DNA of 64,000 bases from Deltaproteobacteria bacterium (lineage in GTDB: Bacteria; JADJOY01), in NCBI GenBank assembly GCA_016713535.1, contig JADJOY010000008.1, forward strand, positions 212,580 to 276,579, given 5' to 3'. Below, piece by piece: positions 3,317 through 51,300 of the stretch. Every line of letters begins with the position of its first letter. Position 1 is the stretch's first letter. Made by a program: the position numbers and the translations under genes. A model generated the notes under the pieces. That model was not told the DNA's origin and made no database searches. It was given only the letters and a program-made list of their open reading frames with translations.

Positions 3317-3337
3317 TGGGGCGTCACGGCCGCAGCG

Positions 3338-3432: not shown

Positions 3433-3445
3433 CGAGGAGCATTCG

Positions 3446-3802: not shown

Positions 3803-3857
3803 CGGCGGGGCCTGTCCCCGCCCGAAGCTCCCGCCCACCGCAGAACGGAACCCGAGA

Positions 3858-5975
3858 ATGGAAGCGACTCGACAGATCTACTGGAACATCGCCTTCGGCA
3901 TGGCGATCTACGGTCTCGCCGCGGTCGCGGTGGGCTTCGCGGCTCGCGGAGTCTTCCGGCGCGTCCAGCTCTGGAAGCTCGGCGGCGCCGCGCTCCGCAC
4001 CGACCGCATGGGCGAGCGCGCCCGCGGTCTGGTCGCCGAGATCTTCGGCCATCGCCGGCTGCTGCGCGACCCGGTACCCGGCGTGGCGCACCTCTTTGTC
4101 TTCTACGGCTTCCTGGTCGAGCTGATCGCCACCGGCATGATCGCGGTCCAGGAGTGGACCGGCATCCACTATCTGAAGGGTCCGCTCTACCTCGGCTACT
4201 CGCTGGTGAGCGACGTGTTCGGGCTGCTCGGCCTCGTGGGCTGCGGGATCTTCCTTTGGCGGCGCGGGGTCCAGAAGGTGCCGCGCCTTCACACCGTGAC
4301 CGACGACTGGATCGCCATCGGGCTCTTGGCGCTGGTGTTCGCGCAGGGCTTCGTCGTCGAGGGCTTCCGCATCGCGGCCACCGAGCTGCGCCAGAACCCG
4401 GGGCTCGCGGTGTGGTCGCCGGGCGGCTTCCTGGTGGCGAAGGCGGTCTCCGGCCTGAGCGAGGGTGCGCTGCACGCGGTCCATCGCGGTGTGTGGTGGT
4501 TCCACGCGTTCACCGCGTTCGGGCTGCTCGGCTACATGGCGTACGGCAAGTTCAACCACATCTGGTTCGGCACCGCGAACATCCTGCTCCGCAACCTCGA
4601 GCCGAGCGGCAAGCTCGGCCACTTCGACATCGACAAGGCCCTCGAGAGCGACCCCGACGGCGACGTCGTGCTCGGCACCAGTCAGATCGAGCAGTACCCG
4701 TGGAAGAGTCTCCTGGACCTCGACGCCTGCATGAACTGCGGGCGCTGCGAGGCCGTGTGCCCGGCAAGCCAGAGCGGAGTGCCGCTGTCGCCGCGCAAGC
4801 TCATCCAGGACATGAAGGCTCACCTCACCGAGGTGGGCCCGGCGTCGCTGCTGGCGCGGCTCGCCAAGGGTGAAACGGTCGCTGGAGTCGCCGGTGCCGG
4901 GAACGGTGGGGCCGCCGGCGGGGATGCGGTTGCCGCACGCTCGCCGCTCTTCGGCGACGCGCCCGAGAACGCTACCGACCCGCGCCCCGCGGTCCTCGAG
5001 GTCGAGCTGTGGGGGTGTCGCACCTGCGGTGCCTGCACCCAGGAGTGCCCGGTCTTCATCGAGCACATCCCCAAGATAGTGGACATGCGCCGCCACCTGG
5101 TGATGACCGAGTCCAAGATGAGCGACGCGGCCCAGCTCATGCTCAAGAACATGGACGACCGCATGCACCCGTGGGCGAAGGCGCCCCACAACCGCGACGA
5201 GTGGTACCAGGACCTCGACGTGAAGATCCTCGGCGACGGCGCCACCGCCGAGTACCTCTACTGGGTGGGCTGTACCGGCGCGATGATCGACCGCAACATC
5301 CAGGTGACGCGCGCGATGGTGAAGGTGCTCAAGGCGGCGGGGGTGGACTTCGCGATCCTCGGCTCGGAGGAGGTCTGCACCGGCGACCCGGCGCGGCGCG
5401 TGGGCGGCGAGTTCACGTTCCAGCTCTGCGCCAAGCAGAACATCGAGACGCTCTCGAACTACGGCGTCAAGAAGATCATCACCACCTGCCCGCACTGCTT
5501 CAACAGCTACAAGAACGAGTACCCGGACTTCGGCGGCAACTACGAGGTGGTGCACCACACCCAGCTCATCGAGGAGCTGATCCGCGCCGGCAAGCTCAAG
5601 CTCAAGAGCGGGCTCGAGTCGCTCACCTACCACGACCCCTGCTACCTGGGGCGCCACAACGGTGTGTACGAGGCGCCGCGCGCGGTCCTCGACACCCTCG
5701 CGGCACCCGGCGGGCGGATCGAGATGGAACGCAGCCAGTCGAAGTCGCTCTGTTGTGGTGCGGGCGGCGGTTACGCGTGGATGGACGACGACCCCACCAC
5801 CCGCATCAACCACATGCGGCTCGCCGACGTGAAGGAGTGCGGCGCCAAGACCGCGGCGGTGTCGTGCCCGTTCTGCATGCAGATGTTCGACGACGCGCTC
5901 AAGACGCTCGATCCCGGCAAGACCATCCGCGCCGCGGACATCGCCGAGCTGGTGGCGGAGGCGCTCGAGGCGTGA
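3858..5975 (+). CDS. Membrane-bound Fe-S oxidoreductase, EtfD-like. It has an N-terminal NarI/HdrE-like transmembrane domain, 4Fe-4S ferredoxin motifs and two CCG (Cys-rich) domains
   Basis: N-terminal TM helices; CMNCGRCEAVCP and CRTCGACTQECP ferredoxin motifs; two CCG-type Cys-rich segments (CTGDP...TTCPHCFNS and CYLGRHN...CCGAGGG...SCPFCMQM). The architecture matches mycobacterial Rv0338c (EtfD). Confidence 0.8.
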   Translation: MEATRQIYWNIAFGMAIYGLAAVAVGFAARGVFRRVQLWKLGGAALRTDRMGERARGLVAEIFGHRRLLRDPVPGVAHLFVFYGFLVELIATGMIAVQEWTGIHYLKGPLYLGYSLVSDVFGLLGLVGCGIFLWRRGVQKVPRLHTVTDDWIAIGLLALVFAQGFVVEGFRIAATELRQNPGLAVWSPGGFLVAKAVSGLSEGALHAVHRGVWWFHAFTAFGLLGYMAYGKFNHIWFGTANILLRNLEPSGKLGHFDIDKALESDPDGDVVLGTSQIEQYPWKSLLDLDACMNCGRCEAVCPASQSGVPLSPRKLIQDMKAHLTEVGPASLLARLAKGETVAGVAGAGNGGAAGGDAVAARSPLFGDAPENATDPRPAVLEVELWGCRTCGACTQECPVFIEHIPKIVDMRRHLVMTESKMSDAAQLMLKNMDDRMHPWAKAPHNRDEWYQDLDVKILGDGATAEYLYWVGCTGAMIDRNIQVTRAMVKVLKAAGVDFAILGSEEVCTGDPARRVGGEFTFQLCAKQNIETLSNYGVKKIITTCPHCFNSYKNEYPDFGGNYEVVHHTQLIEELIRAGKLKLKSGLESLTYHDPCYLGRHNGVYEAPRAVLDTLAAPGGRIEMERSQSKSLCCGAGGGYAWMDDDPTTRINHMRLADVKECGAKTAAVSCPFCMQMFDDALKTLDPGKTIRAADIAELVAEALEA

Positions 5976-19521: not shown

Positions 19522-20667
19522 TCACACGATGCAGGGTGTCGGCGCGTCCAGGACGGTGCTCGCGACCAGCTCCTCGAGGTAGCGCGTGTCCCACCACGAG
19601 AGCTGCCAGTGCTTGGCGCGCCGGAAGAAGAGCTGGATGTCGTGCTCGATGGTGAAGCCGATGCCGCCGTGGACCTGCTCGGCCTTGGCGGTGACGTCGC
19701 GGAACATCTGGCACGCGAAGAGCTTGGCCATGGGGGCCAGACGCTCGATCGGCCGCCCGGTTGCGCGCGCCCACGCGGCCTCGTAGACCAGCGTACGGCC
19801 GCCGCTCACCAGCGTCGCGCAGTCGGCGAGGTAGTGGGCGATCGCCATGAAGGCACCGATCGGCTTGCCGAACTGCTCGCGGATCTTGGCGTAGTGGTTG
19901 GTCATCTCGAGGGCGCGCTCGGCGCCGCCCGCCGCCTGCGCGGCAAGGTAGATGATTCCCTCGAGGAGCGTGTCGCTCCAGGTCTTCCAGCCGCTGCCGG
20001 CGGCGCCGATGCGGTCCGCGGTGGACACCCGCACGTTGCTGAAGGTGACCTGGTACTGGCAGTCGGAGCCGAGGGTCTTCTGCTGGGTGAGGGTGACGCC
20101 AGGCGCCTTGGGATCGACCAGCACGAGATCGATCGCATCGGGAGCGTCGCCGGTGCGGACGAGCACGAGAAGGCGGGTGGCGGACGACGCGAACTGGACG
20201 TGGCGCTTGGTGCCGTCGAGGACCAGCGAGCCGCCATCGGCCTTCGCGCGCAGCGCGACACCCTTGGGGCCGTAGCCGCGGTCGGGCTCGAGCCAGGCGG
20301 GGGTGAGGATCACCTCGCCGGACGCGATCTTCGGCAGCCACGCCTTCTTCTGCTCGTCCGAGCCCGCGCGCAGGATCGCCCCCGCGCTCGCGACACAGCT
20401 CACGAAGTGGGGCGACGGCGCCAGCGAGCGGCCGAACTCCTCGTACACCACGACACCTTCGATCGCCGACTGGCCGGCGCCTCCGTAGGCCTCGGGCAAG
20501 GTGAGCCCGAGGACGCCGAGCTCGCCGAGCTTCGCCCACAGCTCGGGCGAGTAGCCGGTGGGATCGTCCTCCAGGGTGCGCAGGGTCGCGAGGGTGGCGT
20601 ACTGGTCGCACACGCCGCGCACCATGTCGCGCAGCATGTTCTGCTCGTCGTTGAATTCCAGATCCAT
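19522..20667 (-). CDS. Acyl-CoA dehydrogenase
   Basis: 381 aa: ...YGGAGQSAIEGVVVYEE...VLDGTKRHVQFAS...QVHGGIGFTIEHDIQLFFRRAK shows ACAD family hallmarks. Confidence 0.9.
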   Translation of the reverse strand: MDLEFNDEQNMLRDMVRGVCDQYATLATLRTLEDDPTGYSPELWAKLGELGVLGLTLPEAYGGAGQSAIEGVVVYEEFGRSLAPSPHFVSCVASAGAILRAGSDEQKKAWLPKIASGEVILTPAWLEPDRGYGPKGVALRAKADGGSLVLDGTKRHVQFASSATRLLVLVRTGDAPDAIDLVLVDPKAPGVTLTQQKTLGSDCQYQVTFSNVRVSTADRIGAAGSGWKTWSDTLLEGIIYLAAQAAGGAERALEMTNHYAKIREQFGKPIGAFMAIAHYLADCATLVSGGRTLVYEAAWARATGRPIERLAPMAKLFACQMFRDVTAKAEQVHGGIGFTIEHDIQLFFRRAKHWQLSWWDTRYLEELVASTVLDAPTPCIV

Positions 20668-20766: not shown

Positions 20767-21249
20767 TCACGGCTTCCACTGGGCTCCCTCGCGGGTCCAG
20801 GGGTTGTCGCTCGCGGTGGCGGGGAGCGCGACCCGCACCTTGCACTCCGTCATGAGCTTCTCGCCGACGCCGAGCTTCACGTCGAGGCTCGCCCAGCCGC
20901 AGCCCACGTCGTCGGTCTCGACCTTCTCGACCGTGGCGCGGAACACCATACGATCGCCCGGGAACACCGAGTCCTTCATGCGGAACTTCATGCGGCCGAT
21001 GCGCCCGTGAGGCCCGGTCCAGTCGGTGACGTAGCGCTCGAACCAGGCGGCCTGGTTGGGCGTGTTGAGGAAGATGTCCTGCACGCCGTTGCGGTTCACC
21101 GCGAAGTCCTTGTCGTGGTGCATGGGGCGGAAGTCGCGGGTGGCGAGGGCGCCGAGGACCACGGTGGTGGCGCTGACGTCGAAGGCGAGCTCGGGGACGA
21201 CGTCGCCGGCCCGGACGCGATCGAGGGTGAGCTTCACGGGCGTGGTCAT
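20767..21249 (-). CDS. MaoC-like (R)-specific enoyl-CoA hydratase, hot-dog fold (ChsH2-like partner)
   Basis: MTTPVKLTLDRVRAGDVVPELAFDVSATTVVLGALATRDFRPMHHDKDFA... is a MaoC dehydratase. A 4-bp overlap with the upstream hot-dog gene. Confidence 0.8.
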   Translation of the reverse strand: MTTPVKLTLDRVRAGDVVPELAFDVSATTVVLGALATRDFRPMHHDKDFAVNRNGVQDIFLNTPNQAAWFERYVTDWTGPHGRIGRMKFRMKDSVFPGDRMVFRATVEKVETDDVGCGWASLDVKLGVGEKLMTECKVRVALPATASDNPWTREGAQWKP

Positions 21250-21761
21250 CGGTTCCCCCGTCGATAGCCGAGGCCGGTGTAGATCTCCTTGCCGACCATC
21301 GTGCCGTCCTGGTTGAAGTACTCGACGTCGATCACCCAGAAGCGCCCGAGGCCGAGCTTGGTCTGCTTCAGGTCGCTCACGGAGCGCAGCACCTGGTGGG
21401 CGCGCAGGTGGTCGCCGGGGCGGATCGGCGCGTAGAAGATGACCTCGTTGTCGGTCATCACCGCCTCGGGCAGCTCGAGCCTCTCCTTGAGGTCGAAGTG
21501 GATCTGCAGCGGCAGGCGCTGCTTGGTGCGTCCGGGCGCCCAGTGGTGAGGGCGGAACCACACCGACATCATGGTGGGCGGAGTCATGAGGCCGCCGGTG
21601 ATCTCGCGGGCCACGGCCTCGTCCCAGAAGAGTGGGTTGCCGTTCTGGGTGGAGGAGCAGCTCGAGTAGACGTAGCCCTTCTCGACCTCGAACTCGGGCT
21701 CTTCCTCGTAGCGGACCTGGTCGATCCAGCCCTTCACTTCGTCGGGTAGCGGCTCGGACAT
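21246..21761 (-). CDS. Hot-dog fold dehydratase N-terminal-type subunit (ChsH1-like partner)
   Basis: 171 aa, ...NPLFWDEAVAREITGGLMTPPTMMSVWFRP...; a hot-dog family protein paired with the downstream MaoC gene. Confidence 0.75.
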   Translation of the reverse strand: MSEPLPDEVKGWIDQVRYEEEPEFEVEKGYVYSSCSSTQNGNPLFWDEAVAREITGGLMTPPTMMSVWFRPHHWAPGRTKQRLPLQIHFDLKERLELPEAVMTDNEVIFYAPIRPGDHLRAHQVLRSVSDLKQTKLGLGRFWVIDVEYFNQDGTMVGKEIYTGLGYRRGNR

Positions 21762-21808: not shown

Positions 21809-22951
21809 TCATTCGACCGCGCCCGCGGCGCGCAGCTCCGCGATGCGCTCGGGCGTGACGCCGGCGGCGGCCAGAAGGGCGTCGGAGTCGGTCTCGGTGG
21901 CGGCGCGAGCGGCGTGCGGCGGGAGCTCCTCGCGCCCGCCGGCGAGGACCTCGCTCACCTGACGGAAGGCGCCGCGCTCGGGGTGCCGGGCCTGGACGAA
22001 GGCGCGACGGGCAACGAACTGATCGTCCTCGGCGACCTCGGGGATGGTGCTCACCGGCGCGACACAGGTGTCCTTGGCGGCGAGCTCGGCGATCCACGCG
22101 TCGCGATCGCGGGTGGCGAAGGCGGCGCGGAACGCGGCGCGGATGTCCTCTTGCTTCGCGTCGTCGAGCTGGTGCGGGATCCACTCGGCGCAGCCGAGGA
22201 GCTTGCAGAGGTTGGCGAAGAACGCGGGCTCGATCGCGCCCACCGAGAGCCAGCGGCCGTCGGCGCAGGCGTAGACGTCGTAGCAGGCGTAGCGGCCGGT
22301 GAGGATGTCGCCGCCGGGGCCGGGCTCCTCGCCGGTGGCGAGGAAGCGATCGACGTGGAGCGACATGAGGTGGAGGACGCCGTCGGCGACCGAGACGTCG
22401 AGCCACGCGCCCGCGCCGCTGCGCTCGCGCTGGAGGAGCGCGGCGAGGATCGCGATGACCGCGTGCATGCCCCCCGCGGCGCTGTCGGCGACGGTGGCGC
22501 CGGGGATCGCGGGGCCACCGTCCTCGCGCCGTCCTGAGCAGTGAAGGAACCCGCCGACGGCGAGATAGTTGATGTCGTGGCCGGCCCAGGTCGCGCGCGG
22601 CCCGTCCTGGCCGTAGCCGCTCGTCGAGCACAGGATCGCGCGCGGGTTCACGGCGCGGAGCGCCTCCCAGCCGATGCCGAGGCGCGCCACCACGCCGGGC
22701 CGGTAGCTCTCGATCACGACGTCGGCCTTCGCGGCCAGCGCGAGGAACGCCTCCTTGCCCTCGGCAGCCTTGAGGTCGATGCGGACGCGCTTCATGCCGC
22801 GCCCGGCGCCGTAGGAGAAGAAGGGAGGTTCGATCTGCACCGAACCCTTCTTCGCGGTCGGGCTCACCTTCACGACGGTCGCGCCGTAGTCGGCGAGGAT
22901 CCGCGAGGCGCGCGCCGCCGGACCGACGCTCGCCAGGTCGAGCACCGTCAC
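21809..22951 (-). CDS. Family III CoA-transferase (CaiB/BaiF/Frc family)
   Basis: MTVLDLASVGPAARASRILADYGATVVKVSP...IESYRPGVVARLG...CSTSGYGQDGP shows the family III motifs. The true start may be slightly upstream. Confidence 0.85.
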   Translation of the reverse strand: MTVLDLASVGPAARASRILADYGATVVKVSPTAKKGSVQIEPPFFSYGAGRGMKRVRIDLKAAEGKEAFLALAAKADVVIESYRPGVVARLGIGWEALRAVNPRAILCSTSGYGQDGPRATWAGHDINYLAVGGFLHCSGRREDGGPAIPGATVADSAAGGMHAVIAILAALLQRERSGAGAWLDVSVADGVLHLMSLHVDRFLATGEEPGPGGDILTGRYACYDVYACADGRWLSVGAIEPAFFANLCKLLGCAEWIPHQLDDAKQEDIRAAFRAAFATRDRDAWIAELAAKDTCVAPVSTIPEVAEDDQFVARRAFVQARHPERGAFRQVSEVLAGGREELPPHAARAATETDSDALLAAAGVTPERIAELRAAGAVE

Positions 22952-23140: not shown

Positions 23141-24322
23141 TCAGTAATTCCTCGGAAGCCCCAGCCCGCGCCGCGCGATGATGTTTTTCTGGATCTCCGA
23201 CGCGCCGCCGCCGATGGTGTCGATCACCGTGTAGCGGTAGGTCTTCTCGGCGCGGCCCTTCATGGGGGCCTCCTCGGTGCCGACGCGGAGCTGGCTGCCG
23301 GGACTCGCGAGGTCCATCGAGGCGTCGGCGACGCGCTTCGAGAGCTCGGTGGCGTAGAGCTTGTACGTCGAGGCCTCGACGGTGGGCGGCGCTCCGCCCC
23401 GCATCGCGGCGCTCACGAATTTGAGGCCGAGGACGCGTGCGACCTCGGTCTGGGTGACGAGCTGGGCGATCTGGCTGCGCACCAGCGGATCGGCGCTGAG
23501 CGGTTCGTCGTCGCGGGTGGCGGTACGCGCCCACTCGCACAGCACCTCGACGCGCGCCTGGATCGGCGCGAACGTGAACATCGTGAAGCGCTCGAGGTCG
23601 AGCGCCTCCGAGATGTACTGGAAGCCCTTGCCGAGCTCGCCCACGCGATAGTCGTCTCCCACGTACACGTCGTCGAAGAACACCTGGTTGGTGATCTCGT
23701 CGCCGATGGTGGGCATCGACTGGACGGTGAGGCCCTTGGCCTTCATCGGCAGCAGGAAGAGCGTGATGCCGGCGTGCTTGGGGGCGTCCGGGTTGGTACG
23801 CGCGCCCACCCAGTACCAGTCGGCGAAGTGGGCCGAGGTGGTGAAGATCTTCTGCCCGTTGAGGCGCCAGCCCTCAGCATCGCGCACCGCGCGGAGCTGC
23901 ATGTTGGCGGCGTCGGAGCCCGCCTCCGGCTCGCTGTACCCGATCGCGAACTCGACCTCGTTGCGCAGGATCTTGGGCAGGAACTCGCCCTTGAGCTTGG
24001 CGCTGCCGTGGCGGATCAGGGTCTTGCCGATGATACCGACGCCCTTGCCGATCTGCGGCGCACCGCGCCCCGCGAGACGCTCGTTCAGGAGGTACTCGTA
24101 GACGCCGCTCTGCTCCGAGCCGCCGTGCTCCCTGGGCCAGGTGAGACCGAGCCAGCCGCGGTCGGCGATCTTGCGCATGAACGCGCGCCGCGGCGGCGTG
24201 TCGACGAGCTGCGCCATGTTCTCGCGCGTGACGTCCATGACCTCGGGATCGCGGTTCTCGTCGAGGAACCGGTCCACGTCCGCGAGGAAGTCGTGCTCTG
24301 CGTCGGTGAAGGCGAAGTCCAC
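23141..24322 (-). CDS. Acyl-CoA dehydrogenase
   Basis: 393 aa: ...WLGLTWPREHGGSEQSGVYEYLLNERLA...GYSEPEAGSD...GGGASEIQKNIIARRGLGLP is canonical for ACADs. Confidence 0.9.
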   Translation of the reverse strand: MDFAFTDAEHDFLADVDRFLDENRDPEVMDVTRENMAQLVDTPPRRAFMRKIADRGWLGLTWPREHGGSEQSGVYEYLLNERLAGRGAPQIGKGVGIIGKTLIRHGSAKLKGEFLPKILRNEVEFAIGYSEPEAGSDAANMQLRAVRDAEGWRLNGQKIFTTSAHFADWYWVGARTNPDAPKHAGITLFLLPMKAKGLTVQSMPTIGDEITNQVFFDDVYVGDDYRVGELGKGFQYISEALDLERFTMFTFAPIQARVEVLCEWARTATRDDEPLSADPLVRSQIAQLVTQTEVARVLGLKFVSAAMRGGAPPTVEASTYKLYATELSKRVADASMDLASPGSQLRVGTEEAPMKGRAEKTYRYTVIDTIGGGASEIQKNIIARRGLGLPRNY

Positions 24323-24367: not shown

Positions 24368-24790
24368 TCAGGGAACGACGAAGCTCATGGCGCCCTCGAC
24401 GGCGACGGCGCCAGCCTGATTGGTGCACACCAGCTCGACGTCCACGCACCGCTCGCCGTTCGCCTCGTACTTGCGGGCGACCTTGCCCGAGCAGGTGATG
24501 AGGTCGCCGGGGAATAGCGGCGTCTTCCAGCGCACCTTGGTGCGACGCACGTTCTCGGGGCCGAGCCAGTTGGTGGCGTAGGTGTTGAGCACGCCGGCCT
24601 GATACATGCCGACCACCAGCGGGCGGGTGAAGCCGGACGCCTGCGCGAAGTCGACGTCGTGGTGGATCGGATTGAAGTCACCCGAGGCGCCCTGATACCG
24701 CACCACGTCGGTCAAGGTGATGGGGCCGACGGTCCAGGGCTCCGGTCCCTGGCCCTCGACGAGGCTCTCCCACGCGATGGCCGACGTCAT
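24368..24790 (-). CDS. MaoC-like enoyl-CoA hydratase, hot-dog fold
   Basis: MTSAIAWESLVEGQGPEPWTVGPITLTDVVRYQGASGDFNPIHHDVDFAQASGF... A 4-bp ATGA overlap with the upstream hot-dog gene. Confidence 0.8.
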   Translation of the reverse strand: MTSAIAWESLVEGQGPEPWTVGPITLTDVVRYQGASGDFNPIHHDVDFAQASGFTRPLVVGMYQAGVLNTYATNWLGPENVRRTKVRWKTPLFPGDLITCSGKVARKYEANGERCVDVELVCTNQAGAVAVEGAMSFVVP

Positions 24791-25245
24791 CAGCCGCCCT
24801 CCTCGGGGTTCTTCGCGGTCTCGACGCCGGTGAGACGCGCCTCGGCCACCAGGTTGCCGGCTTCGTCGCGGTACTCGGTGACCATCACCGCGAACGTCAT
24901 GGTTCCCCCGCGCTTGCCCTGCTTCTCGAAGATCTTCTCGATCCGCGAGGTGCCGATGAGCCGCGTGCCGGCCCGGGGCGGTGGCCCGTGGAACACGAAC
25001 TCCTGCTCGGCGTGCATGCCGCGCTTCGGGTCCATCCGCACCTTTTCCCACGGGTTGCTGCCGGGGACGCGGGTCTCCCAGAAGAACGCGGTGGTGAGAA
25101 AGGTGGGCGGGCAGGCCGGATGGTGGCCCTCGAAGTGAGCGGGGTGCGTCGACTTCGTCGCGGTCGCGAACTCGTGGATCTTGCCGCGCTCGACGTCGAG
25201 CGCGAAGGGAACGCCGGTCTCGCCGAGTGCCGCCTTGTCGACCAT
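24790..25245 (-). CDS. Hot-dog fold dehydratase N-terminal-type subunit
   Basis: 151 aa: MVDKAALGETGVPFALDVERGKIHEFATATKSTHPAHFEG... pairs with the downstream MaoC gene. This is the second copy of the module. Confidence 0.75.
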   Translation of the reverse strand: MVDKAALGETGVPFALDVERGKIHEFATATKSTHPAHFEGHHPACPPTFLTTAFFWETRVPGSNPWEKVRMDPKRGMHAEQEFVFHGPPPRAGTRLIGTSRIEKIFEKQGKRGGTMTFAVMVTEYRDEAGNLVAEARLTGVETAKNPEEGG

Positions 25246-25303: not shown

Positions 25304-26086
25304 TCAGGGATGCTGACTGCTCACCGCGACGCACTCGCCGGTCATGTAGCTCGACAGGTCGCTGGCCAGGAACATCATCACGTTCGCCACTTCCCAGGGC
25401 TCGGCACCGCGGCCGAACGCTTCCTTCTGCTCGAGCTCCTCGAGCAGCCCGTCGGGCATCACCTTGGTCAGGAACTTGTGGGTGGCGAGGCTCGGCGCGA
25501 CCGCGTTCACACGAACGCCGTGCTCCGCCGCCTCCAGGGCGACGCAGCGGGTGAGCGCCATCACGCCCGCCTTCGCGGCGGCGTAATGGGCCTGGCGCTC
25601 CTGGGCGCGCCAGCCGAGGACGGACGCGTTGTTCACGACGGCTCCGGTGCCGCGCCGGTACATGTGCGGCAACATCGCCCGTAACATGCGGAAGGTGCCG
25701 GTCAACGTGATGCCGATCACCGCGTTCCACTGATCGTCGGTCATCTCGACGATCGGCGCGTTGCCGCCGAGGCCGGCGTTGTTGATCAGTACGTCGACGT
25801 GGCCGAGCTCCGCGACGGCGGCGTCCACCAGGGCTCGCACCTGCGCTTCCTCGGCGACGTTGCAGAGCGCGGTGGGCGGTCGTCGCCCGGTGAGGCGCTC
25901 GAGCTCCGCCGCGGCTTCACCGAGACGGCGCTCGTGGATGTCGCTGATCATCACCGTGGCGCCCTCTTCGGACGCGCGGCGGGCGGCGGCGAAGCCGATC
26001 CCGGTGCCCGCCGCGGCGGTCACCAGGACGTTCTTTCCGGCGAGCAGCGCGTGGCCGGTGGGATAGGGCGGCGGCTTGACGGTCAT
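25304..26086 (-). CDS. SDR family NAD(P)-dependent oxidoreductase
   Basis: The motifs VLVTAAAGTGIGFAAARR, NNAG and YAAAKAG are the SDR signatures. Confidence 0.85.
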   Translation of the reverse strand: MTVKPPPYPTGHALLAGKNVLVTAAAGTGIGFAAARRASEEGATVMISDIHERRLGEAAAELERLTGRRPPTALCNVAEEAQVRALVDAAVAELGHVDVLINNAGLGGNAPIVEMTDDQWNAVIGITLTGTFRMLRAMLPHMYRRGTGAVVNNASVLGWRAQERQAHYAAAKAGVMALTRCVALEAAEHGVRVNAVAPSLATHKFLTKVMPDGLLEELEQKEAFGRGAEPWEVANVMMFLASDLSSYMTGECVAVSSQHP

Positions 26087-26093
26087 GACGAAA

Positions 26094-26107
26094 ATAGAAC
26101 ACGTTTC
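26094..26107. promoter_or_regulatory. KstR-type operator TAGAACACGTTTCA (TnnAACnnGTTnnA) in the divergent SDR / LLM-P450 promoter region
   Basis: Second exact match to the KstR consensus, located between two divergently transcribed catabolic operons. Confidence 0.6.
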
Positions 26108-26195
26108 ACTTCGGCGCCGCGAGTGTAGTGACCGCCCCAGACGGTGTAAAGACGGCGCCTCGCGTGAGCGTCACGCGCATCGAGGAGCAGGGCTC

Positions 26196-27038
26196 ATGAT
26201 GAAGCTCGGGGTCACGATCTTCGCGACCGACCAGTGCATGGACGTGGTCGAGCTCGCCCGCGAGAGCGAGGCGCGCGGCTTCCACTCGCTCTACATCCCC
26301 GAGCACACCCACATCCCGACCAGCCGCCGCACCCCGCCGCCCACCGGCGACGCGGTGCTGGCCGAGGAGTACAAGCGCACCCTCGATCCGTTCGTGGCGC
26401 TCGGCGCGTGCGCGGCGGTGACGCAGAAGCTGGTGCTCGGCACCGGTATCGCGCTGGTGGCGCAGCGCGACCCGATCGTGTTCGCGAAGGAGATCGCCAC
26501 CCTCGACGTGCTGTCGAAGGGCCGCGCCGTGCTCGGCATCGGCTTCGGCTGGAACGAGGACGAGATGGAGGACCACGGCGTCACCTTCAAGGAGCGCCGT
26601 GACGTGGCGCGCGAGAAGATGCTCGCGATGCAAGCGTTGTGGGCGAACGAGGTGGCGAGCTTCGAGGGCCAGTACGTGAAGATCCCGCCGTGCTGGTCGT
26701 GGCCCAAACCTGTGCAGAAGCCGCGGGTGCCGATCCTGATCGGTGGCGGCGGCGGGCCCAAGCTCTTCGCGCACATCGCCGAGTATGCCGACGGCTGGAT
26801 CCCGATCGGCGGTGCGGGCGTGCGCGAGCTGATCCCGCAGCTCCACGCTGCGGTCGAGGCGCGCGGGCGCGACCCCAGGTCGATCCGCGTGATCCCGTTC
26901 GGCACGCTGCCCACGCCCGGGAAGCTCGACTACTACGCCTCGCTCGGCATCGACGAGGTGGTGCTGCGCATTCCGTCGGCTCCGCGCGACACGGTGATGC
27001 CCATGCTCGACGAGTTCCGGAAGCTGCTCCCGAGCTGA
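26196..27038 (+). CDS. LLM-class (luciferase-like) flavin/F420-dependent oxidoreductase
   Basis: MMKLGVTIFATDQCMDVVELARESEARGFHSLYIPEHTHIP...VLGIGFGWNEDE... A GAGGAG RBS sits 8 nt upstream. Confidence 0.85.
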   Translation: MMKLGVTIFATDQCMDVVELARESEARGFHSLYIPEHTHIPTSRRTPPPTGDAVLAEEYKRTLDPFVALGACAAVTQKLVLGTGIALVAQRDPIVFAKEIATLDVLSKGRAVLGIGFGWNEDEMEDHGVTFKERRDVAREKMLAMQALWANEVASFEGQYVKIPPCWSWPKPVQKPRVPILIGGGGGPKLFAHIAEYADGWIPIGGAGVRELIPQLHAAVEARGRDPRSIRVIPFGTLPTPGKLDYYASLGIDEVVLRIPSAPRDTVMPMLDEFRKLLPS

Positions 27039-27055: not shown

Positions 27056-28305
27056 ATGCGACTCGACGAGATCGACCTTACCGACCTCGATCGATTCCAG
27101 CGCGGCTCCCCCACGAGGCGTTCACGGCGCTGCGCCGCGAGGCTCCGGTGTGGTGGCACCCGCCCACGCCACGCGCGCCGGGTGGCGAGGGCTTCTGGGT
27201 CGTGAGCCGGCACGCCACGGCACGGCGCGTGCTGCTCGACACCCGGACGTTCTCCTCCGAGAGCGGGCCGGGACGCGACGGCGGCGGCACCACGCTCGTG
27301 GACTATCCGCGCGGGCAGGGGCCCGGGCAGATGATCACCATGACCGATCCGCCCGCGCACACGCGCCTCCGGCGGCTGGTGAACCACGGCTTCACGCCGC
27401 GGCGCTTCGCGGCCCTCGAGGCGGGGATCCGCGCCCGCGCGGCGCGCACGCTCGACGCGGTGGTGGCGCGCGGCGAGTGCGACTTCCTCGTCGAGGTCGC
27501 GGCCGAGCTTCCGCTCCAGGTCATCGCCGAGATCCTCGGCGTACCCCAGGACGATCGCCACAAGCTCTTCGCGTGGGCGAACGCCTTCACCGATCAGGAG
27601 GACGGCCAGAACGCGGGCTCGCTCGACGCCGCGCGCGCCGCGGCGATGGAGGCCTTCGGCTACGCTCACGCGTTGATCGAGCGAAAGCGCGCCGAGCCGG
27701 GCGCCGACATCCTGAGGGTGCTGGTCGCCGCCGAGCTGCCCGACGAGGACGGCGGCCATCGCCAGCTTGACACGGTCGAGCTCGACCTCTTCTTCGTGCT
27801 GCTGCTCACCGCCGGCTCCGAGACCACGCGCAACGCCATCGCCGGCGGCCTGCTGGCGCTGATCGAGCGCCCCGACGCCTGGGACAGGCTTCGCGCCGAC
27901 ACCGCGACGCTCCTGCCGATGGCGATCGAGGAGCTGCTGCGCTGGACCTCGCCCACGGCCTACAACCGCCGCACCGCCACGGAAGACCTGGAGCTCGAGG
28001 GAGCGCGGATCCGCGCCGGTGACAAGGTGTCGGTGTGGTACGCGTCGGCGAACCGCGACGAGGCGGTGTTCGCCGAGCCGTTTGCGCTCGATCTCGCGCG
28101 CCAGCCGAACGAGCACCTCGCGTTCGGTCACGGCCCGCATCTCTGCCTGGGTGCCCCGCTCGCGCGGCTCGAGATGCGGGTGATGTTCGAGGAGCTCCTC
28201 GCGCGCGTGGCGCGGGTCGAGCTCACCGCCCCCGTCGCGTGGATGCGCACCAACAAGTTCATCGGCCTGCGCCACATGCCGGTGCGCCTCTCACGCGCGC
28301 GCTGA
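27056..28305 (+). CDS. Cytochrome P450, CYP125/CYP142-like (steroid C26-monooxygenase clan), with a 1-nt frameshift in a C5 run at 27108-27112
   Basis: From the ATG at 27056, MRLDEIDLTDLDRFQRGSP reads in one frame. Adding one C restores HEAFTALRREAPVWWHPPTP...GFWVVSRHA, which parallels the CYP125 N-terminus. VARGECDFLVEVAAELPLQVIAEILGVP parallels CYP142/CYP125. The heme loop is FGHGPHLCLG. Confidence 0.85.
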
Positions 28306-28318
28306 AGAGCCGCGCGCC

Positions 28319-28705
28319 GTGCCAGCGAGGATCCCGATGCCCACGATCGACACGGTTCCCGCCCGCTACATGGAGGCCGTCAACGCCCGGAGCCTCGACG
28401 GTCTGCGCACCCTCTTCCGCGACGACGTGGTGCTCCACCACCCGATGGGGCTCTTCGAGGGGCGAGAGCTGGTGGTCGGCTTCTACGAGAACGCGGTGTT
28501 CCGGGCCAAGACCCAGCTCTCGGGCGACGGGCCGGTCTTGACCGGCGGCAGTACCGTCGCGCAGCAGATGCTCGGCCGCTTCCCCGAGGACAACGGCTTT
28601 GGCATGGCGATCCCGGATCAGCGCGCCATGGACCTCTTCGATTGCGATGCCGACGGCCGCGTCGCCACGATCACGATCTACTACCTGAGCTTCCCGTCGC
28701 GCTGA
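28319..28705 (+). CDS. SnoaL-like / NTF2-like protein
   Basis: 128 aa: ...RYMEAVNARSLDGLRTLFRDDVVLHHPMGLFEGRELVVGFYENAV... It is the last gene of the LLM-P450 operon. Confidence 0.6.
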   Translation: MPARIPMPTIDTVPARYMEAVNARSLDGLRTLFRDDVVLHHPMGLFEGRELVVGFYENAVFRAKTQLSGDGPVLTGGSTVAQQMLGRFPEDNGFGMAIPDQRAMDLFDCDADGRVATITIYYLSFPSR

Positions 28706-37954: not shown

Positions 37955-38727
37955 CTATCTCGGCGCGAGGACGCGGCGCAGGAAGCGCTGGGTGAAGGGG
38001 TGCGCGGGCGCGGTGAAGACCTGGTCGGCGGCCCCTTCCTCCACCTTGCGCCCCGCCTCCAGCACCACCACCCGGTTCGCGACCTCGCGCGCGAAGCCCA
38101 TCTCGTGGGTGACCACGAGCATCGTCATGCGCTCGCGGGCGAGGTCGCGCATGACCTCGAGCACCTCGCCGACCAGCTCGGGGTCGAGGGCGGAGGTGGC
38201 CTCGTCGAAGAGCATGAGCGCCGGTTCCATGGCGAGCGCGCGGGCGATGGCGACGCGCTGCTGCTGACCGCCCGAGAGGCGTGCCGGGTACTCGTCGCGT
38301 TTCTCGGCGAGGCCGACGCGCTCGAGGAGCGCGAGCCCGCGCTCGGTCGCGGCGGGCGGGCTCTCGCCCTTCACCCGCACCGGCGCCTCGATCACGTTCT
38401 CGAGCGCGGTGAAGTGGGGAAGAGGTGAAAGCGCTGGAACACCATGCCGATCCGCGCGCGCTGCGCGTCGACCTCGCGCTCGGGTCGCGCCACCCAGCGG
38501 GTGCCGTCGTGGCGCTCGCCGATCGGCTTACCGTCGAACCACACGTGCCCGCTGGTCGGCGGTGAGAGGTGGTTGATGCAGCGAAGCAACGTCGACTTCC
38601 CCGAGCCGCTCGGGCCAATGACCGCCACCACCTCGCCGCGCGCCACGCCGAGGTCGATGCCGGCGAGCACCTCGGCCTGGCCGAAGCGCTTACCGACACC
38701 TTCGAGGCGAAGCAGCTCGTCGCTCAC
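37955..38727 (-). CDS. Polar amino-acid ABC transporter ATP-binding protein, with an apparent frameshift near 38400-38445
   Basis: The N-terminal half carries Walker A GPSGSGKST in the frame of ORF 38392..39354. The C-terminal half carries LSGGQQQRVAIARAL and Walker B in ORF 37955..38395. A GTG start with a GGAG RBS sits at 38727. Confidence 0.75.
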
Positions 38728-39399
38728 GATTCCCGTGCTCCGAGGCGCGCTTCGAGCCTGGCGGCGACGCCACTCAGGATCAGCACGATCGTCAGGTAGC
38801 CGAGCGCCGCCCAGCCGTAGACCTCCCATGGCCGGAGGTACGTCGCGGCGATGCGCTGGGTCACGTAGAGCGCCTCGCTGAGCGCGATCACCGACACCAG
38901 CGAGGTGTCCTTGGAGAGCGCCGCGAGCTCGTTCACGATCGGCGGGATCAGCCGGCGGTAGGTCTGCGGCAGGATGATCCGGCGCATGGCGAGGCGGTGG
39001 CTCATGCCCAGCGCGCGGGCGGCCTCCATCTGGCCCCGGTCGATGGACTCGATCGCGGCGCGCAGGATCTCCGCGAAATAGGCCCCCGCGTTGAGGCCGA
39101 GCGCGAGCACCCCGGCGGGGAAGGCGTCGAGGCGCACGTCGAGGAGCGGCGGCAACGCGAAGTAGACGAACAGCACCTGGAGCAAGAGCGGCGTGCCGCG
39201 GAAGAGCGCGATGTAGATCCGCGCCGCGTGGCGCAGCACCGCGAAGCGCGACATCCGCCCGAGGGCGATCAAGAGGCCGACCAGCAGCCCGGCGGCGCCG
39301 GAGAGCACCGTCAGCTCGGCGGTGAGCACGAAGCCGGCCGCGAGCCGCGGCCACACCACCTGGGTGGAGAAGGTCCAGAAGTCGGGCTGGTCGGGCATC
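38724..39399 (-). CDS. Polar amino-acid ABC transporter permease
   Basis: MPDQPDFWTFSTQVVWPRL...GAYFAEILRAAIESIDRGQMEAARALGMS carries the EAA-loop permease signature. Confidence 0.8.
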
Positions 39400-41972: not shown

Positions 41973-42979
41973 TCACACGGCCCCGTCGGGCCCCAGCAGC
42001 CGCTCCACGGCCAGCTCGGGCGCCAGCTCACCGCGCTCGACCCTCGCCTCGAGCTCCGCGAGCTGCTCCGCGACGCCCGCGCGGAGCAGGAACCGGGCGT
42101 GGAGCTGTTCGTCGAGGAGCGCGCGCATCCACTCGCGCGACTGACGGGCGCGCCGTGCCGCGAACGAGCCGCGCTCGAGGCCGTTGGCGCGGTGCGCCTC
42201 GACGGTCCGCCACAGCTCCTCGATGCCGTCGCCGGTCTTCGACGACACCGTCACCACGGGCACCTTCCAGCCGTCCTCGGCGGCGCTCAGGTATTCGAGC
42301 GCGCGCTGGTAGTCGACGCGGCTGCGGCTGGCGCGAGAGAGGTTGTCGCCGTCCGCCTTGGTGATCGCGATCAGGTCGGCGAGCTCGATGATGCCCTTCT
42401 TGATCCCCTGCAGCTCGTCACCGGCTCCGGCGAGGAGCAGCACCAGGAAGCAGTCCACCATCGAGTGGACGGTGGTCTCTGATTGGCCGACGCCGACGGT
42501 CTCGACCAGCACCACGTCGTAGCCGGCCGCCTCGCAGACCAGGATGCTCTCGCGGGTCTTGCGCGCGACACCGCCGAGGGTGCCGGCGGTGGGCGAGGGC
42601 CGGATGAACGCGGCGGCGTCGACCGAGAGCCGGCTCATGCGGGTCTTGTCGCCGAGCAGGCTGCCGCCGGTGCGGCCGCTGGTGGGATCGACGGCGAGCA
42701 CCGCGACGCGGTGGCCGGCGCCGGTGAGGCGGGTGCCGAGAGCATCGATGAGCGTGCTCTTGCCGGCGCCCGGCGGTCCGGTGATGCCGACCCGGCGCGC
42801 GCCGCCGGTGTGGCCGGAGAGCCGCTCGAGGACCTGGTGGGCGAGGCGGGTGTGGGCCGCGGCGGTGCTCTCGACCAGGGTGATCGCGCGCGCCAGCGTC
42901 ACGCGGTCGCCGGCGAGGACGCCGGCGACGTAGTCGTCGAGGGTGAGGGCCCGCTTGGTGGCCGGGCGTGCGCCGTCGC

Positions 42980-42983
<4 letters not shown>
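41973..42983 (-). CDS. meaB: Methylmalonyl-CoA mutase-associated GTPase MeaB
   Basis: P-loop [12 protein letters not shown], plus DxxG and NKAD motifs. A 4-bp overlap with mutB. Confidence 0.9.
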
Positions 42984-45141
<2,158 letters not shown>

Positions 45142-45144
<3 letters not shown>

Positions 45145-47273
45145 TGGCACGGCTCCCATGGCGCGGGCGAGGTTCGTGAGCGCGGCGACCAGGTCGGCGC
45201 CGGCGTAGAGACGAGGCAGCGCATCGATGCGGGCGCGGGTGGCCTCGTTGGTGAGGGTGCGGCCGATGAGCGCGAGCGGCGCGCCCGGCACCGCGGCGGC
45301 GACGCTCGCGACCAGCGCCGCGAGCGGCTCGGCCTCGGTGTCGTCGAGCGGCGAGAGCGCGATCGCGGCGGCGCCCCTCTCGGCCTTCGCGGCGGCGAGC
45401 GCCGCCGGTCCGGCGAGCCCCTCGCGGGTCACCACCTCGAAGCCCGCGACCTCGAGCACCTCGCGCGCGAAGCCGAGCTTGGCCTTGGCGCGCTTGCCGG
45501 TGTCGACCGCGGCGGCGAGCACCCGCGGACGGCGTCCGTCGCGGGCGAGGATCTTCTCGGAGGCGCGGCGGATGCGCTCGAAGCCTTCGGCGGCGCGCAC
45601 CGCCACGAGCGCCTCCACCTTCGGTCCGGCGAGCGCGTCGCCACGCAGCGCGGCGCGCAGCTCGCCGATCGTGGCGCCCGCGTCGGCCGCGGCGATCGCG
45701 GCGTCCACGCGCGCGGACGGCTCGCTCGCGCGCGCCACCCCGGCGAGCGCCTCGTCCCGCTTGGCGGCGTCGGCCGCGGCGCGCTGGCCGGCGAGCTCGG
45801 CGATCCGCTCCTCGCGCAGCGCCTTCAGGTCGCACGCCGGAACCGCGGGGCGCTGCTCGCCCAGGTTCGGGAACTTGGACACACCGATCAGCGGCTCGAC
45901 CCGCTTGCTCGCCGCGGCGCGCCGCTCGGCGCCGCGGGCACCCACCAGCGCCTGCGCCGCGCCACTCGCGAGCGCCGCCGCGAGCCCACCGGCCTTCTCG
46001 ATCTCCTGCAGCACGCTCCACGCGCGCGCGCGAGCGTGTCGGTGAGGCTCTCGACGAAGTACGAGCCGCCCGCGGGATCGTGGACCTTGGCGAGGTGGCT
46101 CTCGTCGCGCAGCAGCACGTGGGTGTTGCGGGCCACGCGCTGCGAGTGGCCGTCGCTCGGGCGCAGGGCGTGGTCGTAGGGCGCGACGGAGACGCTGTCC
46201 GCGCCGCCCACCACCGCCGCGAACGCTTCGACGGTGCCGCGGATCATGTTCACCCACGGATCGAACTGGGTCTCGCAGCGCCGCGACGTGCCGGCGTGGA
46301 TCGTGAGCGCGGCGGCCGCTTCCTCGCAAGCGTAGGCGGCGAGCACCTGTCCCCACACCAGCCGCGCGGCGCGCAGCTTCGCGGCCTCCAGGAACATCCG
46401 CGTGCCGACCGGGAAGGAGAGCCCGATGCGGCGCGCGGCGTCCGCCGCCGCCACGCCGCGGTCGACGAGCGCGCGCAGGTACTCGACCGCGGCGGCGATC
46501 GTGAGCCCGAGCTCCTGGTCCACCGCCGCGCCCGCGTCGTGGTAGGGGGCACCCGAGGCGATCGCGACCTTCAGGCGCGGCGCCTTCGCGCCGGCCCACC
46601 GCGCCAGCGCCGCCAGCTCCGCGTACGCCGCGTCGAGCTCGACGTGGCTGCCGCCGGTAGCGGCGAGGGCGCCGAGGGGGTCGGCGGCGATCGTGAGGCC
46701 GTCGAGCGCGGCGCCGCGCGCGTTGAGGCTCGCGATCGCCAGCGCCGCGAGCGCCAGCGGCGCCGGTCCGGTACCGACCACGAGCGCATGCTTCGTGGGG
46801 TCGAGGGGGGCCACGATCGCGGCCAGGTCGGCACGGCTCGCGAGCGACACGCCGCCGCTGCCGACCCGTCCGGCGCTCCGCGCATCGGCGGGGTCGAGCT
46901 CGGCGCGCGTGGCTTCGTCCGGGACCAGCGCGATCTCGGTGGCGCCGCCGGCGAGCTCGCTCGCGACGTGCGCCGTTGCGGCGGCGGGACGGACGTCCTC
47001 GACGTCGATGCGGACCGCCCACGGCCCGGCGTCGGCCCGAGTGCCGCGCACGTACGGCGCCGCTCCCGGGCGGCTACCGAGGTGCGGCACCGCGCTCTCG
47101 GCGTCGCGGACGTAGATGGGCCGCACCGGGATGCCGTCGAGCTGGCGGCGCCCGAGCTTCTCCTCGATCGGCTTACCGCCGAGCTCGGCGCGCGCGGCGT
47201 CGAGCCAGGCACTCTCGGTCGGCGGCGGGAACTCCTCGAACAGCGGACGCACCTCGGGAAGGGACGGGCTCAC
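45142..47273 (-). CDS. mutA: Methylmalonyl-CoA mutase small (beta) subunit, with an apparent frameshift near 46020-46045 (GC-repeat run)
   Basis: The N-terminal roughly 400 aa are coherent in ORF 45888..47273 up to ...[16 protein letters not shown]. The C-terminal roughly 300 aa are coherent in ORF 45142..47022 (...[18 protein letters not shown]...). The gene order mutA-mutB-meaB is as in mycobacteria. Confidence 0.75.
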
Positions 47274-48339: not shown

Positions 48340-51300
48340 ATGAACCCGCCCAAGCCCGCCTCCGATCGTTCGCCCGCGGCCAGCCGTGTCGCGGCGCCCG
48401 CCGCCGAGCGCCCGCGCTTCGTCACCGCCGCGTCGCTCTTCGACGGCCACGACGCGTCCATCAACATCATGCGCCGCATCCTCCAGCAGGAGGGCGCCGA
48501 GGTGATCCACCTCGGTCACAACCGCTCGGTCGAGGAGATCGTGGCGGCGGCGATCCAGGAGGACGCCCACGGCATCGCGGTGTCCTCCTACCAGGGCGGG
48601 CACGTCGAGTTCTTCACCTACATGGTGGAGATGCTGCGCGAGCGCGGCGCAGGCCACGTGCGGGTGTTCGGCGGCGGCGGCGGCGTGATCGTCGACGACG
48701 AGATCGAAGCGCTTCACCGCGCCGGCGTCACGCGCATCTACTCGGTGGAGGACGGCCGCCGGCTCGGCCTGGTGGGCATGATCCGGGACATGCTGGCGCG
48801 TCTCGACCTGCAGCCGCTGCCATGCCCCGATGCGGTCCCCGACGGCGTCGTGCGCCGCGAGCCCGGAGCGCTGGGGCGCTTCATCAGCGCCCTCGAGCAG
48901 GCCGGCACAGACGACGGCGACGGCGCGAACGCCGGGGCGCTGGGCGCCATCCGCGACGCGCTGCGGGCGCGGATGCCGGCGCAGGCGGCGCCGATCGTGG
49001 GCATCACCGGCACCGGCGGCGCGGGCAAGTCGTCGGTCAACGACGAGCTGCTCCGGCGCATCCTCGATCACTTCCCCGAGCGTACGGTCGCGGTGCTGTC
49101 GGTCGACCCGACCCACCGCCGCACCGGCGGCGCCTTGCTCGGCGATCGCATCCGCATGAACGCCGCCCGCGGCGAGCGGGTCTTCATGCGCTCGATGGCG
49201 ACGCGGCGCGCGAACCTGGCCACCTCTGCAGCGGTCAGCGACGCGCTGCTCGCGCTGCGCGCGGCGTCCTTCGACCTGATCCTCCTCGAGACCGCCGGGA
49301 TCGGCCAGGGCGACAGCGAGGTGGTCGACCTCTCCGACCTCTCGCTCTACGTCATGACCCCCGAATACGGCGCGCCCTCGCAGCTCGAGAAGATCGACAT
49401 GCTCGAGCTCGCCGACCTGGTGGTGATCAACAAGGCCGACCGCCGCGGCGCCTCGGACGCGCTGCGCGAGGTACGCCGGCAGCTCCGCCGGGTGCGCGGC
49501 CTCACCAGCCTGGCACCCGAGGACATGCCGGTGTTCTCGACGATCGCGAGCCGCTTCGGCGACGCGGGCGTCGACCGGCTCTTCGCCGCGCTGATGCGCA
49601 AGGTGGGCGAGAAGAGCGGCCAGGACTGGAACCCCGGCGAGCCGCCCGCGCGCACCGGCGTGACCCTCACGGTGGTGCCGGACGCGCGCGTCCGCTATCT
49701 GGCCGAGATCGCCGAGACGTGCCGGTCATACCGCCAGCGGATCGCCGCCCAGGCCGAGCTCGTCGCCCGCGCGCAGGCGCTGGGCGTGGCGCTCGCCGAG
49801 CTCGGCGAGGTGCCACCACCGACATCCCTGGCCGAGCTGCCCGCGGGCGACGGCGACGCGAGCGGGCGCGACCCGGTGGTGGCCGAGCTGGCGCGCCGCT
49901 ACGGCGAGCTGGTCGAGAGCGTCGATCCGCGCCTCAAGCGCGAGCTCGGCGAGTTCCCGGCGTTGCGCGAGAGCTACGCGGCGGACGTCTCGAAGTTCAC
50001 CGTGCGCGGCAAGGAAGTGACGATCCGCAACGACTACCGGACCCTCTCGGGCACGCGGGTACCCAAGGTGTCGCTGCCGAGAGGCGATTCGCTGGGCGAC
50101 CTGACGCGCTGGCTCGGCGTCGAGAACGTCCCCGGCCGCTTCCCGTACACGGCGGGTGTGTTCCCGTTCAAGCGCGCGGAGGAGGACCCGACGCGCATGT
50201 TCGCGGGCGAGGGCACCGCGGAGCGCACCAACCGGCGCTTCCACTACGTGAGCCACGGGCTGCCCGCGGTGCGGCTCTCGACCGCCTTCGACTCGGTCAC
50301 GCTCTACGGCGACGACCCCGCCGAGCGCCCCGACATCTGGGGCAAGATCGGCAACAGCGGCGTCAGCGTGTGCACCCTCGACGATGCCAAGCGGCTCTAC
50401 TCGGGGTTCGACCTGGTGTCGCCCAAGTCGAGCGTGTCGATGACGATCAACGGCCCGGCGCCCGCGATCCTCGCGATGTTCCTGAACACCGCGATCGACC
50501 AGGCCGTGGAGAAGCGACTCCGCGAGAGCGGCCGCCTCGAAGCGGCACTCGCGAAGGCCCGCGCCGAGGCGGGCGGCGAGCTGCCGGTGTATCGCGGCGA
50601 GCTGCCCGCGGGCCACGACGGCGGCGGGATCGCGCTCCTCGGCACCAGCGGCGACCGGCTGCTGCCCGCGGAGGAGTACGCCGCGATCAAGGCGCGGGTG
50701 CTTGCGCAGGTCCGCGGCACCGTCCAGGCCGATATCCTGAAGGAGGACCAGGCCCAGAACACCTGCATCTTCTCGACCGACTTCGCCCTCAAGCTCATGG
50801 GCGACGTGCAGCAGTTCTTCGTCGAGAACGAGGTGCGCAACTTCTACAGCGTCTCGATCAGCGGCTACCACATGGCCGAGGCGGGCGCGAATCCGATCAC
50901 GCAGCTCGCGTTCACCCTCGCCAACGGCTTCACGTTCGTCGAGTACTACCGGGCGCGCGGGCTCGCGGTCGACGACTTCGCGCCGAATCTGTCGTTCTTC
51001 TTCTCGAACGGGCTCGACGCCGAGTACGCGGTGCTGGGGCGCGTGGCGCGCCGCATCTGGGCGGTGGCGATGCGCGAGCGCTACGCGGCCAACGAGCGCT
51101 CGCAGATGCTCAAGTACCACATCCAGACGAGCGGCCGGAGCCTGCACGCGCAGGAGGTCGACTTCAACGACATCCGCACCACGCTGCAGGCGCTGTACGC
51201 GATCTTCGACAACTGCCAGAGCCTGCACACCAACGCCTACGACGAGGCGGTGACCACGCCCACCGAGGAGTCGGTGCGGCGCGCGCTCGCGATCCAGCTC

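Follow-up and report, generated by a model that had tools for sequence, protein, structure and literature searches.

Gene content of the divergent locus

The window, by which we mean the whole 64-kb stretch of DNA analysed here (G+C content of ~70 per cent), belongs to an uncultured sludge bacterium whose MAG carries the label 'Deltaproteobacteria'. At the locus of interest, eight genes on the minus strand diverge from three genes on the plus strand. The minus-strand set begins with an SDR gene (25304–26086), a match to Pfam adh_short. An earlier note on this DNA had placed the SDR start codon at 26086, and this assignment is corroborated by the NCBIfam model NF005880/PRK07831, which aligns from residue 3 (427.6 bits, above the cut-off). 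The SDR gene is followed by genes for a hotdog-fold (FAS1_DH_region) hydratase subunit recognized by Pfam (24790–25245), a MaoC-like hydratase subunit whose orthologue is called in locus L209 (24368–24790), an acyl-CoA dehydrogenase (ACAD) resembling ChsE4/FadE26 (23141–24322; PDB 4X28_A, 1.4e-57; Tcur3483), an alpha-methylacyl-CoA racemase-like protein of the family III CoA-transferase fold (21809–22951; MCR 1X74, 1.7e-63; Pfam CoA_transf_3), a second hotdog-fold hydratase subunit recognized by Pfam (21246–21761), a second MaoC-like subunit (20767–21249), and, as the last gene, a second ACAD identified by domain and family models (19522–20667). The operon had been described as containing six genes; the two that had been missed are the MaoC genes at 24368–24790 and 20767–21249, both of which start with an ATGA overlap of the preceding stop codon. 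A Shine-Dalgarno sequence is present before every gene of the operon except the SDR gene, the ATG of which is preceded by TATTTTCGTC. From these homologies, we infer that the minus-strand operon may serve the beta-oxidation of 2-methyl-branched acyl-CoAs, for example those of sterol or isoprenoid side chains.

The plus-strand operon starts with a gene for an F420-dependent LLM-class oxidoreductase (26199–27038). Its start had been placed at 26196, but the second ATG, at 26199, is more likely, as it is conserved in orthologues and gives the 279-aa product of the NCBI annotation; the LLM product is identical to MBK7973520.1. The protein falls within the Rv2161c family (TIGR03619; 244.5 bits against a cut-off of 166.9), and orthology to Rv3520c was rejected (TIGR03559; 66.7 bits against a cut-off of 335). 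The second gene (27056–28305) encodes a P450 that matches PDB structures of the CYP125/CYP126/CYP124 clan, its best solved relatives being CYP125MRCA (4.6e-122) and CYP126 (2.4e-107), followed by CYP124 and CYP125. This gene is frameshifted: compared to loci L212 and L209, a 1-nt deletion in a run of Cs at ~27105–27109 splits the open reading frame that begins with the ATG at 27056, and the deletion means either that the gene is a true pseudogene or that the assembly is in error at a homopolymer. The third gene (28319–28705) encodes a SnoaL-like protein recognized by Pfam, with synteny kept in L001, L209, and L212. The identities that had been assigned to the three genes of this operon were all upheld by Pfam. 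Convergent to the SnoaL gene lies a member of the fatty-acid hydroxylase/sterol desaturase family (PF04116; 29546–30589), whose position is kept in the same three loci. Judged by their homologies, the two operons together look like a pathway in which a 2-methyl-branched chain is first omega-hydroxylated and then broken down by beta-oxidation. None of the core genes for the steroid ring (for example, kshA, kstD, or hsaC) was found in the 64-kb window.

Elsewhere in the window, the gene for the ATPase of an amino-acid ABC transporter (37955–39354) is split into two open reading frames, likely by an indel; ABC_tran positions 2–74 are located in 38392–39354 and positions 83–137 in 37955–38395. The overlap of the mutA and mutB open reading frames at 45888–46021 may have the same cause. 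A 1158-aa IcmF-type fusion of a B12-binding domain, a MeaB GTPase, and a mutase (48340–51816) adjoins a separate mutA/mutB/meaB set (41973–47273).

A KstR-type palindrome in the control region

Because the LLM start lies at 26199 and the SDR start at 26086, the control region between the two divergent operons spans 112 bp. It contains a 14-bp imperfect palindrome with a 6+2+6 architecture, TAGAACACGTTTCA, located at 26095–26108 (the earlier coordinates, 26094–26107, were off by one base). This putative KstR-type operator fits the KstR core TnnAACnnGTTnnA with zero mismatches. Between the palindrome (hereafter, the box) and the SDR start codon lies an A-rich flank, GACGAAAA (26087–26094). Three exact fits to TnnAACnnGTTnnA were observed in the window, as compared with an expectation of 0.04, and none of 100 shuffled sequences reached three. 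One of the other two fits is the sister box described below. The remaining one, TAGAACGCGTTCGA at 44856–44869, is situated inside mutB (the methylmalonyl-CoA mutase large subunit), and we discounted it as a third operator: it coincides with the codons for the conserved SNAFY residues, is flanked by GC-rich DNA, and so most likely reflects the coding sequence itself. Longer inverted repeats were tried as a reading of the site at 26095–26108 and rejected, as was an RNA element (an Rfam search returned zero matches).

In Mycobacterium tuberculosis, as in industrial mycobacteria, the use of cholesterol is under the master control of KstR, a regulator that has so far been treated as actinobacterial. 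In EMSA, KstR_Mtb binds the sequence TGAAACGTGTTCTA at Rv1894c/Rv1895 and at Rv3545c(cyp125)/Rv3546(fadA5) (Kendall et al. 2007, PMC1995591). This sequence is the reverse complement of the box in the window, which is therefore identical to bound KstR sites across the entire 14-mer. The same 14-mer is found at MSMEG_3519, among other M. smegmatis sites, and over 20 nt the window and the Rv1894c site agree at 18 of 20 positions. The earlier designation of the box as KstR-type is thus borne out by both the exact consensus fit and the identity to EMSA-positive sites.

The resemblance extends to the placement of the box and to the genes around it. KstR sites are often located in divergent intergenic regions, where they overlap the -10 element (Kendall et al. 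2007, PMC1995591). More generally, operators of KstR (Rv3574/MSMEG_6042) in Mycobacterium, Rhodococcus, and Nocardia have the same palindrome and lie between divergent genes of lipid or cholesterol catabolism, close to a -10 element or transcription start site (TSS); likewise, the box in the window lies between divergent genes and adjoins a predicted promoter. Known KstR targets include CYP125-clan P450s, ACADs, MaoC hydratases, NMO, and F420-type LLM proteins. By homology, the genes that flank the box also belong to lipid or cholesterol catabolism, as judged from the CYP125-clan P450, the ChsE4-like ACAD, the MCR, the MaoC pairs, and the SDR, in addition to the NMO at the sister site. The locus nevertheless differs from characterized KstR systems in that its host is a non-actinobacterial MAG, there is no kstR gene within the 64-kb window, the LLM protein is of the Rv2161c and not the Rv3520c family, and Mce4 and ring-cleavage genes are absent nearby. 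Moreover, the -10 element of the predicted promoter (P1, see below) precedes the box, whereas a typical KstR box is located just upstream of the -10 element or overlaps it.

The closest counterpart in layout is the Rv3520c/Rv3521 node of M. tuberculosis, in which one KstR box separates an F420-type LLM gene from a side-chain beta-oxidation operon. In both cases a P450 gene adjoins the LLM gene, and in M. tuberculosis this gene is cyp142, which encodes a sterol C26-monooxygenase. The M. tuberculosis node differs in its box (TAGAACCTGTTCTA), in its LLM subfamily, and in its partner operon, which is DUF35-ltp4-ltp3, as opposed to the operon from the SDR to the second ACAD in the window. The organisms that have KstR also have KstR2, a TetR-type repressor that acts on the catabolism of steroids (HIP) and recognizes a different motif, AnCAAGnnCTTGnT; a scan of the relatives' loci L213–L217 found no box of this type.

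Conservation of the box among orthologous loci

Five loci with orthologous SDR and LLM genes were available for phylogenetic footprinting: L212, in which the LLM protein is 97 per cent identical to that of the window, and L001, L209, L210, and L211, in which it is 88–89 per cent identical. In all five the box is conserved at 14 of 14 positions, whereas the surrounding intergenic DNA is only 50–60 per cent conserved. When the window is compared segment by segment to L001 and L209, identity is complete for the box (14/14), for the flank between the box and the SDR ATG (8/8), for the block GCGAGTGTA that contains the -10 element of P1 (9/9), and for the block GTGTAAAG that contains its -35 element (7/7). 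The 17-nt spacer of P1 has kept its length but only 9 of its 17 nucleotides, and the remaining intergenic DNA up to the LLM gene is identical at 23–28 of 47 positions. Invariance among the orthologues reaches beyond the box itself and covers the entire segment 26061–26111. The DNA of the first nine SDR codons (26061–26086) does not vary among any of the orthologues and contains a plus-strand TTGACG at 26076–26081. The sequence CTTGACGG is also found before the sister box, both in the window and in L213, with a gap of 7 nt there and 13 nt here.

Promoter geometry on the SDR side

A promoter scan of 700 bp returned one match, with 0.0 expected. This sigma70-like promoter, P1, reads TTTACA-17-TACACT on the minus strand, directed towards the SDR gene, and is conserved: its -35 hexamer (26145–26150) is invariant and its -10 hexamer (26122–26127) is part of the invariant block GCGAGTGTA. 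In 13 kb there are two sigma70-like matches, of which P1 is the only intergenic one, the other being inside the SDR coding sequence. The box begins 14 nt downstream of the -10 element of P1 and ends 8 nt upstream of the SDR ATG. With a predicted TSS near 26115, it would therefore occupy approximately positions +8 to +21 of the SDR transcript.

A second arrangement is suggested by the edge of the box. Its first two bases and the A-rich flank together form a minus-strand TATTTT (26096–26091) located 4 nt before the SDR ATG, which could act as the -10 element of a near-leaderless SDR promoter. Other -10-like hexamers (TATAAT, TAGAAT, and TACATT) overlap the same edge of the box in other loci, including those in which an indolepyruvate:ferredoxin oxidoreductase (IOR)-family gene faces the LLM gene (see below).

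A repressor bound to the box would sit between P1 and the SDR start codon, at about +8 to +21, and would also cover TATTTT, the possible driver of a near-leaderless transcript. With either promoter, initiation or escape of RNA polymerase at the SDR operon would be blocked. Repression of the SDR operon by a bound dimer is thus a prediction that is well supported by geometry.

Possible regulation of the LLM operon

The LLM side is less clear-cut. In a relaxed -35/-10 scan of 13 box-anchored loci, no consistent plus-strand promoter for the LLM gene was detected. Between 26152 and the LLM start, there is no AT-rich -10-like element; any LLM promoter would therefore have to be located no farther than ~60 bp from the box, where it would probably be repressed by the same bound dimer. 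The distance between the box and the LLM start codon is 88–90 nt in the window, compared to 25–50 nt in other MAGs. Co-repression of the LLM operon is plausible, given the association of the box with LLM genes across genomes.

These observations partly support the earlier interpretation of the site as a divergent operator. The proposal that the box overlaps the -35 and -10 elements of both operons is not borne out, since the box is downstream of the -10 element of P1 and no LLM promoter was recognized. The further proposal that one operator could co-repress both operons is plausible, with better support on the SDR side.

Recurrence of the box upstream of LLM genes

We scanned 80 LLM loci from species-representative genomes for the exact box. 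Ten of them carry it within 110 nt of the LLM gene (39–105 nt upstream of the LLM tblastn match), as compared with eight boxes in the remaining 851 kb; this amounts to an approximately 70-fold enrichment upstream of the LLM gene. Nine of the ten box-bearing loci are from Myxococcota, 'Deltaproteobacteria', or similar MAGs, and in those nine the divergent partner is a gene for a 1157-aa IOR-family protein, not the SDR operon. The box in IOR/LLM loci ends 25–50 nt before the LLM start, with only a Shine-Dalgarno sequence in between. Because the box precedes LLM orthologues whatever the divergent partner is, the LLM gene appears to be its common partner. IOR/LLM loci with a box (L002, L003, L004, L011, L023, L030, L031, L069, L080, L101, and L175) have TGTAACGTGTTTCA as the preferred form and an A-rich flank before it.

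Among the matches listed in a scan of metagenomes for TGTAACGTGTTTCA, there are two further IOR/LLM instances (L101 and L175), as well as two loci (L163 and L171) in which the box is located 22 nt upstream of an SDR-LLM-SDR operon. Eleven high-GC metagenome contigs among the listed matches have no regulator gene adjacent to the box, except for a TetR gene downstream of the IOR gene in L175, which is not of the KstR type.

A sister site in the same window

The sister box, TGAAACATGTTCTA (2078–2091), which is the first site of the earlier note, is likewise an exact fit and likewise intergenic. It is located between an NMO gene on the minus strand (start at 1965) and P450-CMD-EtfD-like genes on the plus strand (GTG at 2147), and thus follows the same orientation logic in another divergent region of lipid-catabolic genes. 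All 14 positions of the sister box are conserved in L213 and L214, where the NMO protein is 90 per cent identical and a conserved TTGACG precedes the box by 7 nt; the box is absent from relatives with NMO proteins that are 77–80 per cent identical. The sister box probably belongs to the same regulon as the box at 26095–26108.

On one side of the sister box (868–5975, and in L213), the gene order is NMO-(101 aa)-ETFbeta-ETFalpha-DUF35 (ChsH2-type), and on the other side P450-CMD is accompanied by a gene for a membrane Fe-S CCG protein similar to EtfD of mycobacteria. Because NMO, ETF, and EtfD-like genes flank the sister box, genes for electron transfer from ACADs may share the regulon. In L215 (9270–16844; also in L216), in which the NMO protein is 80 per cent identical, a gene cluster without a KstR box adjoins NMO-ETF. 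This cluster includes genes for DUF35, an Ltp-type thiolase, an enoyl-CoA hydratase, a TetR protein, an acyl-CoA ligase, two CoA-transferase subunits, and a KstD-family flavoprotein (622 bits, below the equivalog cut-off), and hints at alicyclic or steroid-ring catabolism in the lineage.

Candidate regulators and the host

KstR operators go together with a cognate TetR-family KstR orthologue in the same genome, which usually regulates its own gene. Pfam scans of about 70 window open reading frames detected no TetR gene in the 64-kb window. An iterated TetR-HTH HMM, applied to the window and the first 80 loci and then to all 217 loci, likewise found no TetR gene in the window. The TetR proteins encoded in loci of relatives are EthR-like (L058), RutR/ScbR-like (L215), and SCO3833-like (L175); none of these three is KstR-like, and none of their genes has a box upstream.

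The nearest named relatives of PyrB, which is encoded in the window, are from Binatia, delta MAGs, Geothermobacteraceae, and Thermosulfuriphilus. Both the MAG label and these relatives suggest that the host is outside the actinobacterial range of KstR. Orthologues of NMO and of the LLM protein occur widely among MAGs of this kind. KstR has been described only from Actinobacteria. According to a review, proteobacterial bile-acid degraders do not have KstR1 or KstR2 homologues, and a literature search found no paper that ties KstR to Myxococcota or Binatota. The kind of element described here is well known, and its noteworthy part is the non-actinobacterial host.

Possible identities of the site

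On balance, we lean towards the interpretation that the site is a functional KstR-type operator for a TetR-family dimer, positioned in the region between both operons. A dimeric repressor of this family, encoded outside the 64-kb window, would bind the 6+2+6 palindrome, and by analogy with KstR, which is released by 3-oxocholestenoate or the CoA ester of this acid, its repression would be lifted by a CoA thioester or an oxidized substrate intermediate. The most serious competitor, which we nonetheless regard as unlikely, is that the regulator is another TetR-family sensor of fatty acids or acyl-CoA (PsrA-, FadR-, or DesT-like). The AAC-N2-GTT core would then resemble the KstR core by convergence or distant common descent, and the regulon would comprise general beta-oxidation and electron transfer and would not be sterol-specific. 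PsrA of Pseudomonas and relatives is a TetR-family repressor of beta-oxidation and ETF genes that binds a palindrome of GAAAC half-sites, C/GAAAC-N2-4-GTTTG/C, and its box spans -18 to +20 in PsrA's own promoter (PMC13104628). One half-site in the window reads TGAAAC, the host is proteobacteria-like, and Proteobacteria are without KstR according to reviews. We give this possibility the weight that we do because a PsrA-like sensor would suit the sister site, where the adjoining genes, NMO-ETF and EtfD-like, are of a kind typically seen in fatty-acid regulons. The fit to PsrA, however, is confined to one half-site: the minus strand reads GAAAC-GT-GTTCT, so that the second half-site has GTTCT in place of GTTTC, and we rejected the site as a PsrA-type operator. 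The spacing differs as well, as the PsrA consensus is usually, and Pseudomonas PsrA sites are mostly, N4-spaced (PMC13104628), and the site as a whole is an exact fit to KstR and is identical to sites bound by KstR. A further argument against this alternative is the presence of genes for a CYP125-clan P450, a racemase, and a ChsE4-like ACAD, which indicate methyl-branched or sterol side chains as substrates.

It is improbable that the conserved block represents only the core promoter and translation-initiation region of an SDR gene that has no Shine-Dalgarno sequence, with TATTTT as a -10-like element and an A/U-rich leader. Such a role would account for an SDR ATG without a Shine-Dalgarno sequence only 8 nt from the box, for the invariance of the whole segment 26061–26111 and not just of the box, and for the -10-like hexamers that overlap the box edge in several loci. 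However, neither a -10 element nor a leader needs dyad symmetry, and the 14-bp palindrome recurs with differing flanks and downstream genes at the sister site, in the IOR/LLM regions, and before the SDR-LLM-SDR operon; because the dyad recurs in such unrelated contexts, a promoter or leader role alone is disfavoured. Still less probable is a regulator of another family, for example of the LacI/GalR type. The TGTAACGTGTTTCA variant of the delta group does resemble the generic LacI-type site TGnAAnCGnTTnCA and matches 8 of its 10 specified positions, but the central dinucleotide varies (AC, GT, AT, GC, and AA) and is not CG, in agreement with the 'nn' of KstR and not with the hinge-helix requirement of LacI. 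The centre of the site in the window is AC in place of the central CG step of TGnAAnCGnTTnCA, and a LacI/GalR-type operator was rejected; the gene context also is lipid and not sugar catabolism. Finally, one of the three fits in the window (at 44856) is clearly coding-driven, but that the box at 26095–26108 is itself a chance match without function is scarcely credible, given an expectation of only 0.04 fits per window, the invariance of the box amid diverging neighbours, and its recurrence upstream of orthologues in distant MAGs.

Implications for KstR-type regulation

Returning to the KstR-type interpretation, the broader proposal would be that a KstR-like repressor-operator system with a CYP125/ChsE/MCR-type side-chain regulon exists in an uncultured non-actinobacterial lineage, and we put this forward only tentatively. 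The lineage would be one of the former Deltaproteobacteria or of an unclassified phylum, living in activated sludge, with the box kept before genes for Rv2161c-family LLM proteins in Myxococcota-like MAGs. If true, both KstR-type regulation and aerobic catabolism of sterol side chains would extend beyond Actinobacteria. An identical box in a delta-like sludge bacterium suggests one of two histories: a spread of the repressor, along with its regulon, to bacteria outside the Actinobacteria, or convergence of an unrelated sensor upon the same site. Either reading bears on which organisms degrade sterols and branched lipids in wastewater.
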